From a virus, in IMG/VR virus record IMGVR_UViG_3300020447_000001, positions 1 to 64,000 of that record: DNA of 64,000 nucleotides. One strand, given 5' to 3'. Positions within the stretch are counted from its first letter, which is position 1; every line of letters begins with the position of its first letter. This document shows, piece after piece, positions 43,253-49,242 of this stretch. Below the pieces are notes generated by a model. The model saw only the letters and a list, made by a program, of their open reading frames with translations, was not told where the DNA came from and made no database searches. The position numbers were made by a program, and so were the translations under genes.

Positions 43253-43585
43253 TTGGAGCAAACAATGGCAGTTGATCCTAGTGTACCGGTAAGGAAACTT
43301 GTAATCATGGAAGACGGTATGATTATTGGATTATCTAATAATCATCAATTTGTGACTGCCTTTCCCTTTTTAGCCCCACTAAAGAAATTAACTAACGCAC
43401 GTGTTGGCGGTTGCGGTAAATGCAATTCAGCTGCTAAGCAACGTGTTCAACTACTAAACTCGGCTAAGATGGCAATCATAGGTCTAGGACAAGACAAGAA
43501 AGACCAAATGAAGAAGCTCATGAATGCTAATAAGATACAGGTTAAATACCTGGCTGGACGAGAAGTCAAGACGCACGAGTTCTAA
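43253..43585 (+). CDS. Hypothetical basic protein (CxxC)
   Basis: 110 aa, GGCGKCN; last gene before the promoter-like element at 43600. Confidence 0.6.
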   Translation: MEQTMAVDPSVPVRKLVIMEDGMIIGLSNNHQFVTAFPFLAPLKKLTNARVGGCGKCNSAAKQRVQLLNSAKMAIIGLGQDKKDQMKKLMNANKIQVKYLAGREVKTHEF

Positions 43586-43599
43586 CATGCCTATTTAAG

Positions 43600-43641
43600 C
43601 ACCTAAATTCTTGGCATTATTGCGTCATTATATAGTGAAGG
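43600..43641 (+). promoter_or_regulatory. Conserved promoter-like element, copy 1
   Basis: cacctaaatt..tgg....ttgcgtcatta.tata.tgaagg, matching 47019-47060; followed by the hairpin gaagga-taata-tccttc. Confidence 0.55.
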
Positions 43642-43670
43642 ATAATATCCTTCAGCGACCTCAACGGTCA

Positions 43671-43748
43671 AGCCTTACGAGTGGTATGTACATCCGCTTG
43701 TGAGGCTTTTTTATTACATGTACTTTTTGCAAGCAAGGAGCTAGTAAC
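43671..43748 (+). repeat. Intergenic cassette element (hairpin + TTTTTTATTACATGTACTTTTTGC + AAGGAG), copy 1
   Basis: Related elements at 44307, 44965, 45737, 47079, 47453, 48088, 48277, 51071 and 57307. Confidence 0.8.
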
Positions 43749-46474: not shown

Positions 46475-46500
46475 TACAATTTAACAGGGAGGGACTAGTG

Positions 46501-46641
46501 ATGATTTCACGGATGATACTTATCGTTTTACTTCTGTTCGCTTCGGGATGTGCAACCACCACGAACTTCACTGTGAAGCAAGTGGTCCCGGAGCATCACC
46601 TGTCGTGGGAAGTTTGCCACGGTGTTACAAGGACTTGGTAA
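46501..46641 (+). CDS. Small lipoprotein (46 aa, missing from ORF track)
   Basis: MISRMILIVLLLFASG|CATTTNFTVKQVVPEHHLSWEVCHGVTRTW; lipobox FASGC; RBS ggaggg; directly follows the TAAATAGTACAATTTAA motif. Confidence 0.65.
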   Translation: MISRMILIVLLLFASGCATTTNFTVKQVVPEHHLSWEVCHGVTRTW

Positions 46642-46653
46642 GGAGGACAACTC

Positions 46654-47025
46654 ATGAGCGAAGAAGAGTATGTTGGTTTTAAAGGAGTAGTAGAGTATCT
46701 AAAAGGTGGAGTCCCCGGCGCAGGAAAAAGTCACGCCATTAAATGTGTTGCTGGAGAATATAATAAGGTCGTTGAGACTGACAAGAACTTGTCTCGGGCG
46801 ATTGACATGCTGGAAAAGTGGGCGGGAAAAGGAGGCCGATTCATTCTGTTATATGAACAGCTCAGGGAAGAAGGCCTGAATCAGGAAGAGGCCATGAAAG
46901 TGGTCAAAGAAGAAGTAGAGATTCAAAAGTTAGAAGCAAAGGGCATGACTCGGAGTGATGCCCAGGGGGTGGTGGAGCTTAACGATCCAAATCACCCAAG
47001 TAACAAGGGACGCAAAAACACCTAA
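46654..47025 (+). CDS. Mini-protein carrying condensed fragments of the AAA ATPase (Walker A)
   Basis: VGFKGVVEYL, GVPGAGKSHAIKCVAGE and ETDKNLSR match three blocks of 52588..54486; RBS aggagg. Confidence 0.7.
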   Translation: MSEEEYVGFKGVVEYLKGGVPGAGKSHAIKCVAGEYNKVVETDKNLSRAIDMLEKWAGKGGRFILLYEQLREEGLNQEEAMKVVKEEVEIQKLEAKGMTRSDAQGVVELNDPNHPSNKGRKNT

Positions 47026-47060
47026 ATTTTGGGTGTTTTTGCGTCATTATTATATGAAGG
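47019..47060 (+). promoter_or_regulatory. Conserved promoter-like element, copy 2
   Basis: Matches 43600-43641; overlaps a 14-bp perfect inverted repeat (47009-47022 / 47032-47045); followed by the hairpin gggaatcc-tta-ggattccc. Confidence 0.55.
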
Positions 47061-47078
47061 GAATCCTTAGGATTCCCA

Positions 47079-47479
47079 GGCCCTTTATCGGGCCTTTTTT
47101 ATTACTTTGGCAACTAGCTGCCGAAGGCCTGCTCGGGCGCGGAGTATATACAGTTTAAATGCCAGTCCCTAGGTCCTGGCTGTCCGTGTGACCATTAGGC
47201 GAGCCTCTGAGCTCAAGAGCACGGAGCAGCAGCATGTGAAGAGAAATCATGCTGCAAATCTTCAACACACGAGATCGACCGTGGTAGGAATGACAGCGTA
47301 AAGCTGCCTTCCACGGGGGATGCTGTACGACGTAAGTGCCCGTGAGGAAATGTACTCCTCTATGGCCAAACGTGCAGATAATGGAAGTGTGCTCTGGGGT
47401 CGCCAAGCTGGGCGTTAAACGTAGCTAGTGTGACACTTCTTTTACTTTCACTGGCCCTTTATCGGGCCTTTTTTATTAC
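47079..47479 (+). repeat. Identical 27-nt direct repeats (47079-47105, 47453-47479) flanking a non-coding cassette
   Basis: ggccctttatcgggccttttttattac occurs twice exactly. Confidence 0.9.
47113..47439 (+). ncRNA. Candidate structured ncRNA (unclassified)
   Basis: No + strand RBS or ORF; 5'/3' closing stem actagctgc/gtagctagt; at least 7 internal hairpins; crossing long-range pairings. Confidence 0.5.
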
Positions 47480-47501
47480 CTTTTAGCAAGGAGAGCTTGA
47501 G

Positions 47502-47780
47502 ATGAAAGTAGCAATATTTGGGAGCCGAGGATGTTGTGGATACAAAGTGACCGTAAGCGAGGATCGGTTGGAAGCCACGCTGGAGGCCATTAGGGCGGCG
47601 GGAGCGGAAGATATTTCGCACCTCATTAGACACACTAGTGAGCCGTGTGACGATCCCGTGCTCAATGACAACAAAAAGCTTGTGCCACTTCCACGCTATG
47701 TCGCCCACACGTGGGCTGACATCTCTTTCACATGTACGGAAGAGATTTACGACCGCCTGAAAGATGGCGGAACATTTTAG
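47502..47780 (+). CDS. Hypothetical protein
   Basis: 92 aa after a cassette element with aaggag RBS. Confidence 0.65.
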   Translation: MKVAIFGSRGCCGYKVTVSEDRLEATLEAIRAAGAEDISHLIRHTSEPCDDPVLNDNKKLVPLPRYVAHTWADISFTCTEEIYDRLKDGGTF

Positions 47781-47925
47781 CCTGATGGGCTTGAGTTTAC
47801 GCTGCGATCGTGGAGATGACACCTGTAAGTCCTTCAAAGTATGGCTGTAGTGGAGCTAGAAACGATCCGGAAGTCTTAGCTAGTCTTGCGGGGGATACAA
47901 CGGGTAAGGCTTTATCCCATGCTTT

Positions 47926-47963
47926 GTCGCGGGTGTTGCAGGGTTCGACTCCCTGCCGTGGCA
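47926..47963 (+). other. tRNA-like T-arm/acceptor element
   Basis: caggg-TTCGACT-ccctg T-arm followed by ccgtggc-a, pairing locally with gtcgcgg; I could not build a full cloverleaf. Confidence 0.4.
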
Positions 47964-47982
47964 TCTTTTAGGGGGGGCAAAT

Positions 47983-48069
47983 ATGAGCGGAAAAAGAGCT
48001 GGATGTATTTGGGTAGCAATAGAACTGACGATTTTCGTTATCGTTTTGTTGTACTTTATGACACTTTAA
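47983..48069 (+). CDS. Tiny hydrophobic peptide (28 aa), pilin-N-terminus-like
   Basis: MSGKRAGCIWVAIELTIFVIVLLYFMTL; G-rich RBS. Confidence 0.45.
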   Translation: MSGKRAGCIWVAIELTIFVIVLLYFMTL

Positions 48070-48137
48070 TTATTATTCTTTTCATACCCCGCCCCAGGAA
48101 AATCTTCTTGGGGCGGGTCTTTTGCAAGGAGAAAGAT

Positions 48138-48257
48138 ATGCGTCGTTCTGGTTATGCGCTTCCGGAAGCAATTATGGGTGTGATACTGGTAACTTTGGTA
48201 TTCACCGCAGGCATAGGCGTATACCGCCTTGTCTGCACGGTTCTCGGAAGTCTCTAG
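48138..48257 (+). CDS. Prepilin-like peptide (39 aa)
   Basis: MRRSG|YALPEAIMGVILVTLVFTAG: class III signal pattern (basic, G-1, aromatic+1, E+5, hydrophobic helix); preceded by a hairpin and tttgcaaggag. Confidence 0.65.
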   Translation: MRRSGYALPEAIMGVILVTLVFTAGIGVYRLVCTVLGSL

Positions 48258-48338
48258 TTTAAGTTTTTAATGTTGTAGCCCGGTAGCGTCTTCGGATTCT
48301 ACCGGGCTTTTTTTATTCCTAATTCGAAAGGATCGAAA

Positions 48339-48695
48339 ATGTGTACTCATGAGAAAGGTACTTGTGTACGTTGTGCGACAGAGGAGCAGGTTGAAGCCGA
48401 AGCACGGCTAGGCGAACGTCTAGACTCCCACACTGCGAAGTTTATGCTGCGGAATCTCAGCAATGGCGTTCCGGCCACCGTCGATCGGTTTATAAAGTCC
48501 CCAGCCGTCGTATTGGAGCCTTTGCTGCCTACAGCTAGCTTGGCCAATGGTCAAGCGAGCTTGCCAAACGAGGCCCAGCCGCTTTCTAGTTTTGTATCGG
48601 CAGCTAGAGAACAAAAGCACATTTCTGATCGCACTGTGCGAGCAGACGAGTGGTGGGACAAAGTCCAAACGGAGAGAGGAGTAGGGGTAGCATGA
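48339..48695 (+). CDS. Hypothetical protein (N-terminal C-x-H...C-x-x-C)
   Basis: 118 aa after a hairpin element, RBS aaagga. Confidence 0.55.
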   Translation: MCTHEKGTCVRCATEEQVEAEARLGERLDSHTAKFMLRNLSNGVPATVDRFIKSPAVVLEPLLPTASLANGQASLPNEAQPLSSFVSAAREQKHISDRTVRADEWWDKVQTERGVGVA

Positions 48696-48976
48696 CAAAG
48701 GCAACTACTAATGGAAGAGGTTTGTGTCTAAGCCAGACCTCGAAAGAGGACGTGATCGTGCGTCCATCCCAAGACTTCTTGGTCGCATATTTTACGTGCG
48801 ACATGAACCTCTCACGAGAGGAAGCAGAAGCAGAAGCAAGTAAGTTAATCTTGCTCCAAACGTTACGGATAAAAACAATTGGAGCCCGAACAAAGCAGCT
48901 TTTTCAGGGGGAGAAAGCCGTACAGGTAATTAGAGTTCCTGCCGGAAAAGATGTTGTAGAATTGTCCCCGGTTTAA
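48692..48976 (+). CDS. Hypothetical protein
   Basis: ATGA-coupled start at 48692 (MTKATTNG), in frame with track ORF 48650. Confidence 0.55.
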   Translation: MTKATTNGRGLCLSQTSKEDVIVRPSQDFLVAYFTCDMNLSREEAEAEASKLILLQTLRIKTIGARTKQLFQGEKAVQVIRVPAGKDVVELSPV

Positions 48977-48999
48977 CTATTTTTGCAAGGAGAAAAAGA

Positions 49000-49242
49000 A
49001 TGGCTACGCAGAAGAAAAAGGCTACAAAAAGTTCGTTCGTAAATGGTGTAGAGACTGGCGAGGAACTTATCCAGCAAACGGCTGGGATTCTTGTTGGTGT
49101 TACTAAAGTGTTTGTAAATACTACTGTGGTGGCACCACTGCGATACGTCGCAACTGTCGCTCAGGCATCTCTTCCAGTTAAGTCGAGTGGGAAGCGGCGA
49201 AAACCGTTTTCGTACACACCACGACGTAATCGAGTAAAATAG
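49000..49242 (+). CDS. Basic hypothetical protein
   Basis: 80 aa; tttttgcaaggag start context; K/R-rich termini. Confidence 0.65.
   Translation: MATQKKKATKSSFVNGVETGEELIQQTAGILVGVTKVFVNTTVVAPLRYVATVAQASLPVKSSGKRRKPFSYTPRRNRVK

Follow-up and report, generated by a model that had tools for sequence, protein, structure and literature searches.

A 347-nt cassette (positions 47106-47452), lying between identical 27-nt repeats, is by sequence comparison a laterally exchanged, terminator-bounded, untranslatable module that has recently moved between related phages. Lateral exchange is argued from three observations: a close relative lacks precisely this cassette, a more distant one has it among other neighbours, and its core is identical there where the neighbouring genes differ by 11-25%. 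What is selected is perhaps an untranslated + strand RNA, a reading to which we give somewhat less than an even chance. Positions are those of the window, a stretch of 64,000 nucleotides at the start of a 116-kb IMG/VR virus record; the record is estimated to be about half complete.

The source phage is an uncultured marine myovirus, the record encoding a tail sheath, and near-identical DNA occurs in marine and seawater metagenomes of 11 studies. It has no close cultured relative, since its fusion of a UDG-like domain to a family A DNA polymerase is at most ~26% identical to any cultured match (the best cultured-phage matches are only ~24-26% identical). This fusion is an 1158-aa protein (L014 8293-11766, genome 92293-95769) with the UDG-superfamily domain at residues 153-307 and the polymerase domain at residues 789-1091. 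Almost all genes of the window and of the whole record are on the + strand, as are all genes neighbouring the cassette and both of its terminators.

The cassette belongs to a run of small genes at ~43.6-48.3 kb of the window. In front of each small gene there stand a GC-rich hairpin and a T-run, in many cases the word ATTAC, then a short leader and finally a ribosome-binding site of the AAGGAG type, and this junction consensus (hairpin/T6/ATTAC/leader/AAGGAG) was found at 43707, 44329, 44981, 47095 and 47469. The parts of the cassette and its flanks are as follows.

47009..47045, + strand: hairpin h1, with 18-nt arms and a loop that holds the stop codon of a 123-aa gene; first part of the junction module
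47059..47077, + strand: hairpin h2, a 9-bp stem with 1 nt between the arms, conserved in both relatives; second part of the junction module
47079..47105, + strand: terminator T1, repeat copy 1 (5-bp GC stem, 6-nt loop, T6, ATTAC)
47106..47158, + strand: variable leader, containing both substitutions relative to the more distant relative (47126 and 47150)
47159..47452, + strand: invariant core of 294 nt, non-coding, with no ORF or family
47161..47180, + strand: predicted local hairpin, pair probability 0.97-0.98
47229..47255, + strand: predicted local hairpin, perfect 8-bp stem with 11-nt loop, p = 0.99
47279..47316, + strand: predicted extended hairpin of three stacked helices, p = 0.93-1.00
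47344..47360, + strand: predicted local hairpin of 5 bp, p = 0.98
47453..47479, + strand: terminator T2, repeat copy 2, followed by the standard leader, SD and ATG of a 92-aa gene
47155..47406, - strand: open frame judged spurious, 83 aa from a TTG start (89 codons stop to stop)

An initial annotation made from the sequence alone had described a non-coding slot between identical repeats and closed by a terminator, and this description holds: the repeats at 47079-47105 and 47453-47479 are identical to one another and unique to that pair in the window, and both, T2 included, were scored as intrinsic terminators. Hairpin h1 has a diverged second copy at ~43579-43640, and is itself identical in the more distant relative despite a different upstream gene there. 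The whole h1-h2-terminator module occurs twice in the window (43579-43717 and 47009-47105), and the marine metagenome contigs show at least four sequences joined to it upstream and three downstream, all different. It looks like a recombination and regulatory unit of this phage group. A third copy of the junction word (TTAC-TTT, at 47437-47448), T-rich and hairpin-less, is found within the cassette close to its 3' end. It comes after an 8-bp stem whose loop measures 42 nt (47383-47390/47433-47440), and may be a degenerate junction module.

Two relatives were compared in detail: L002, an IMG/VR contig ~95% identical in the compared region, and L004, a more distant JGI metagenome contig. L002 is without exactly 347 nt and one 27-nt repeat, so that the h1-h2-terminator module runs directly into the leader of the 92-aa gene. 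One terminator copy is left at this empty site and the breakpoint falls within the 27-nt repeat, as would be expected if the two repeats had recombined. Judging from this contig the cassette is dispensable, since it is absent there. Alignment of L002 3990-4500 with window 46640-47700 shows that the contig also lacks the first ~60 codons of the 123-aa gene; it is further missing 30 nt in frame within the 92-aa gene, and 12 and 4 nt in a tRNA-like region downstream. Going by these alignments, the region around the cassette is one that turns over fast by deletion.

L004 does contain the cassette, with 2 differences in 347 nt, and the order of genes is changed: a homologue of the 92-aa gene, which in the window stands after the cassette, there stands before it and is followed by the h1-h2-terminator module, the cassette, and then a different, Cys-rich 58-aa gene. 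The homologue (L004 1755-2078) is 107 aa long owing to a ~15-residue tandem duplication in which PYPRFVTHT appears twice. Homologous coding stretches are 75-89% identical between L004 and the window. The differences are unevenly spread, with 7 in the 97 nt of h1-h2-T1, 2 in the 53 nt of 47106-47158, and none in the 294 nt of 47159-47452 (Fisher p = 5e-5 for the core versus the junction module).

The core is likewise kept in contigs of three other marine studies, with 0-4 differences; one contig is identical and another has 1 difference in 304 nt. In the contig from the third study, 80 other letters replace 47104-47158 (joint 47103/47159), while 47159-47461 is kept save four adjacent bases. These four (47237-47240), in the loop of the 47229-47255 hairpin, are the sole core variation seen. 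As the core is intact both with and without its own leader, and the modules are variously joined, the travelling unit is best taken to be the 294-nt core plus terminator, and the same comparisons mark the junction modules as the places of cutting and pasting. On these alignments very recent transfer explains the uniformly identical core as well as constraint does.

Searches for further copies were made in several collections. An INPHARED blastn search with the cassette gave no match. Pattern scans of IMG/VR with the core and module found only the already known relative, as did scans with four neighbouring proteins, while a scan with the terminator added two unrelated phages that share only a look-alike terminator. 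The scan of JGI metagenome contigs returned one locus, L004, and that of GTDB genomes six chance matches without further similarity. No diverged homologue of the cassette was thus found in IMG/VR, JGI metagenome contigs, GTDB genomes or INPHARED, nor any paralogue in the whole 116-kb genome and all loci (nhmmer and blastn).

The earlier claim that the + strand has neither ribosome-binding site nor ORF was borne out. There is no + strand ORF of at least 45 aa within 47106-47452, stops occur in all + frames, and the SD is destroyed. The first 14 nt of the leader after ATTAC are those of a standard coding-cassette leader, but the GG of the SD has become CT and no start codon follows; one metagenome contig is common to 47055-47113 and then continues into an intact SD and ATG. 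With SD lost and start codon lacking, the cassette occupies a slot of the coding type that has been made untranslatable. The two changed SD bases also make two pairs of a 9-bp closing stem, a post hoc observation on a stem that is unstable in some contexts. No frame of the cassette has a Pfam match. An alternative genetic code was considered and rejected: the neighbouring genes end in TAA or TAG, and the + frames contain all three stops.

The minus-strand ORF (47155..47406), put forward earlier as a frame that might prove conserved and coding, did not turn out so. It has no SD, no homologue of similar length among 5.8 billion protein clusters, and only repeat-inflated chance matches of any length among 1.8 billion representatives; these are tandem repeats in unrelated long proteins, hitting differing parts of the query. 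Its codon score (-0.063 per codon) lies among those of the 134 antisense open frames of at least 80 codons in the 116-kb genome (-0.087 +/- 0.115), as against 0.06-0.21 for most real small genes nearby. By sequence criteria the frame is judged spurious and behaves like any other antisense frame of that kind. Antisense capture of a host gene was rejected too, the minus-frame translation having no true homologue of any length. Taken over all its frames, the cassette shows none of the usual marks of a protein gene (a start with ribosome-binding site, homologues, genome-like codon usage).

Known RNA families gave equally little, in agreement with the earlier failure to recognize any. The Rfam covariance-model check was negative: at gathering score no Rfam 15 family matched anywhere in the window, and at E <= 10 none covered the cassette within 46900-48100, where there were only weak partial matches at its edges (for example SAM-V on the minus strand, whose 17.9 bits fall short of the threshold of 41). 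Neither GOLLD nor ROOL, as represented in Rfam, matches the cassette in sequence or structure, and ARAGORN found no tRNA or tmRNA gene in the window. An RNase P-like RNA was rejected, the sole resemblance being a GAGGAAA-like word at 47344 with no model match.

The cassette folds no better than the ordinary phage DNA of its genome. Against 465 native 347-nt windows of the same genome its GC-corrected MFE residual has z = -1.0, and 14% of those windows fold better; the native window with extreme folding is the upstream one bearing the h1, h2 and T1 hairpins, not the cassette. Against dinucleotide shuffles the core gives z = -1.6 on the + strand and -2.0 on the - strand, and the cassette with flanks and terminator -2.4 and -3.2, respectively. 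The cassette has 13 helices of 7 bp or longer that contain no more than one G-U, versus 8.8 +/- 2.7 in dinucleotide shuffles, 12% of which reach 13. The highly structured novel RNA that had been proposed is thus not supported, as native windows, shuffles of the core and the helix count all place the cassette at background.

The helices listed in the initial annotation are all present in the sequence, several of them needing G-U pairs that are possible on the + strand only; their number, though, is within chance and the long-range ones are mutually exclusive. In the partition function only the four local hairpins listed above (47161-47180, 47229-47255, 47279-47316 and 47344-47360) are well defined, and only 17% of bases have a partner at p > 0.9. 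The probability of the long-range helices varies with the assumed 3' end of the RNA: p for the closing stem (47113-47121/47421-47429) drops from 0.80 to 0.18 once the terminator is included, and the proposed ggagtata/tgtactcc pairing has p = 0.00. As modeled, then, the global fold of the cassette RNA is ill defined. The initial annotation as a whole is thus partly supported: its cassette slot stands, while its central proposal of a highly structured RNA is neither refuted nor shown.

One further pairing concerns the terminator. A 9-nt stretch of the leader (47123-47131) is complementary to 47463-47471, the 3' half of T2, and in the equilibrium ensemble this pairing beats the terminator hairpin, whose probability falls to 0.22. 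A possible anti-terminator was set aside: the substitution at 47126 in L004 would break one pair, and the partners are 340 nt apart. The complementarity may be chance.

The promoter-like element reported upstream was not recovered. A consensus scan of 46475-49213 on the + strand, which includes every junction, found no sigma-70-like site. A sigma-70 promoter in the h1-h2 module was also sought by eye and rejected, there being only a 5-of-6 -10-like hexamer between h1 and h2 and no -35.

How might such a unit move, and what would it do? We suggest that phages acquire the cassette, lose it or shift its place through homologous recombination at the hairpin/T-run junction modules, whose repeated copies separate all cassettes of the region. 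The cassette would be transcribed from the + strand along with the early genes beside it, or else from a junction promoter that escaped recognition, and transcription would end at T2 to leave an untranslated RNA of ~300-375 nt. This RNA would consist of local hairpins in a row, with no single compact fold, and it, not a protein, would be the cargo under selection, perhaps as an accessory early-infection RNA (for example a regulator, or a decoy against a host function) that some lineages can dispense with. Some function is favoured because the core is sharply bounded with zero differences and is retained across surveys. Our estimate for an RNA is held down by the lack of a structure signal and of any diverged homologue found. 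In its fullest form, the proposal is that the cassette represents a new phage RNA family, an early untranslated transcript of ~300-375 nt traded via junction repeats because the RNA is advantageous (e.g. as decoy or regulator); this we regard as possible, though rather unlikely.

The main rival to RNA cargo is neutral or decayed cargo: a former small protein cassette that lost its ribosome-binding site, start and frame and is spread by recombinogenic junctions, any RNA being a by-product. The leader, recognisable as that of a coding cassette with two SD substitutions, is what such decay would leave, and one + frame does span nearly the whole cassette with only two internal stops and a stop cluster ~30 nt before T2, although by our estimate from stop-codon frequency two or fewer stops in one of three frames arise by chance in ~40% of such sequences. 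Two + frame pieces have mildly positive codon scores, and long antisense frames like the minus ORF are typical opposite + coding DNA (134 in 116 kb), yet no frame has a protein or Pfam match. Background-level structure and absence from the close relative L002 also suit inert DNA. Useless DNA, however, is rapidly deleted from phage genomes, whereas at least five sequence sets, drawn from several studies of 2014-2025, retain this core intact; and decay needs many substitutions, yet all copies are in the same state, 0-4 bases apart. On balance we think decayed cargo unlikely, while still worth serious consideration.

The other explanations are weaker. A DNA-level cis element rather than an RNA gene (a platform for binding, a site of replication or recombination, or a sequence that acts as target or confers immunity where co-infecting phages compete) would account for full identity across loops and stems alike, for identity boundaries that are sharp at 47159 and 47452, and for the absence of a strand-specific structure signal (the strands being equal, z = -1.6 and -2.0). 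The core, however, has no iterons, AT-rich unwinding element or internal repeats, its packaging with leader and own terminator is that of a transcription unit, and L002 dispenses with it; we judge a cis element improbable. A non-autonomous transposable element mobilised in trans, whether MITE-like or of the palindrome-associated IS200/IS605 type inserting 3' of TTAC, is suggested by the left boundary after TTAC, the second motif (TTTTAC-TTT) at 47437-47448, the 9-bp inverted repeat near both ends (47113-47121/47421-47429) and the different neighbours in L004. But TTAC is part of every junction module there, cassette or no cassette, the inverted repeats lie 7 and 23 nt inside the ends rather than at them, and end hairpins of the IS200/IS605 kind would have to be alike, which these are not. 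Nor is there a second copy in the 116-kb genome or a transposase adjoining the cassette, and the empty site in L002 is what recombination between repeats leaves behind, neither a clean excision nor an unfilled target with a single copy of a duplication. A MITE proper was rejected, as the inverted repeats are not terminal and the empty site equals one terminator copy; transposition of any sort strikes us as very improbable. Equally far down we would place hidden coding, by the 83-aa minus-strand ORF or a + strand micro-ORF of 10-32 codons. The minus frame of 89 codons covers most of the core and a 32-codon ATG frame starts at 47320, but neither has a Shine-Dalgarno sequence at usable distance, the minus ORF has no homologues and scores in codon usage as spurious antisense frames do, and the remaining genes of the region are all on the + strand.

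Among known systems, the closest parallel is found in T4-type phages, whose PeSL (promoter-early stem-loop) elements are mobile regulatory cassettes (Arbiol et al. 2010, PMC2839356; Comeau et al. 2014, PMC4122927). In these, repeated promoter/stem-loop motifs in hyperplastic regions give rise to indels, replacements and mini-circles, and the cargo is described as ORFs and ORFans (PMC2839356, PMC4122927). The likenesses are that (i) short motifs repeated between genes carry a terminator stem-loop and have the SD of the following gene as their end; (ii) these motifs cluster in a hyperplastic region made up of small genes whose function is unknown; (iii) close relatives differ by indels and replacements with breakpoints in the motifs, as here in L002 and L004; and (iv) direct repeats flank single cassettes. 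T4-type cassettes can recombine out as mini-circles; no T2-T1 joint was seen in the contigs examined. In contrast to PeSLs, no sigma-70 -35/-10 pair was found in the junctions by consensus scan, the phage is not T4-type (its family A DNA polymerase is fused to a UDG-like domain), and the cargo has no ORF. By analogy, the cassette region appears to work like a PeSL system without being filed as a member: three defining features are present, and membership is withheld because no sigma-70 promoter was found and the phage is not T4-type. Were the new RNA family real, this would be the first PeSL-like shuffling system to trade an RNA gene instead of an ORFan.

The cassette also resembles a moron in separating two genes that adjoin each other in a close relative, in having its own terminator, and in a composition that differs from its surroundings (52% G+C in the core against about 45%, or 42-50% over the window). 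Morons, as described by Hendrix and colleagues, are independent promoter-gene-terminator units between genes that are adjacent in relatives; here, in contrast, no promoter was identified and the payload is not a protein gene.

Variable phage regions are usually read as collections of small unknown proteins. New here are the presence and absence of the cassette, its relocation, the 100% identical 294-nt core and the SD-altered leader. An untranslatable cassette kept base for base across ocean surveys suggests that shuffling systems may also trade RNA genes, and if so, gene-centred annotation overlooks part of the phage accessory repertoire. If the cassette is inert, it is a clean natural example of junction repeats moving and deleting DNA regardless of what it contains. 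In both cases, the cassette-bearing and cassette-free forms of the locus make up a natural deletion pair.

Phages also carry stable RNAs of unknown function, such as the T4 species 1 and 2 RNAs (rnaC and rnaD) beside its tRNA cluster, and GOLLD and ROOL are large phage-associated RNAs with Rfam families. Like all of these, the cassette is a non-coding unit in a phage accessory region, and it lies near a tRNA-like element (47926-47962); it differs in matching no Rfam family, and its RNA product is putative. The element is a minihelix (47926-47962, wider region 47781-47966) in which an acceptor-like stem is joined directly to a canonical T-arm. It scores 26.3 bits (E = 0.0085) against the mascRNA-menRNA model, under the gathering score, and ARAGORN calls no tRNA there. 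The minihelix is identical in L002 and has two copies in L004 (3138-3246 and 3928-4033) at 77-81% identity. In the T-stem, one L004 copy has a compensatory change from G-C to A-U, while a G-U stands in the other; conservation is less clear for the acceptor stem.
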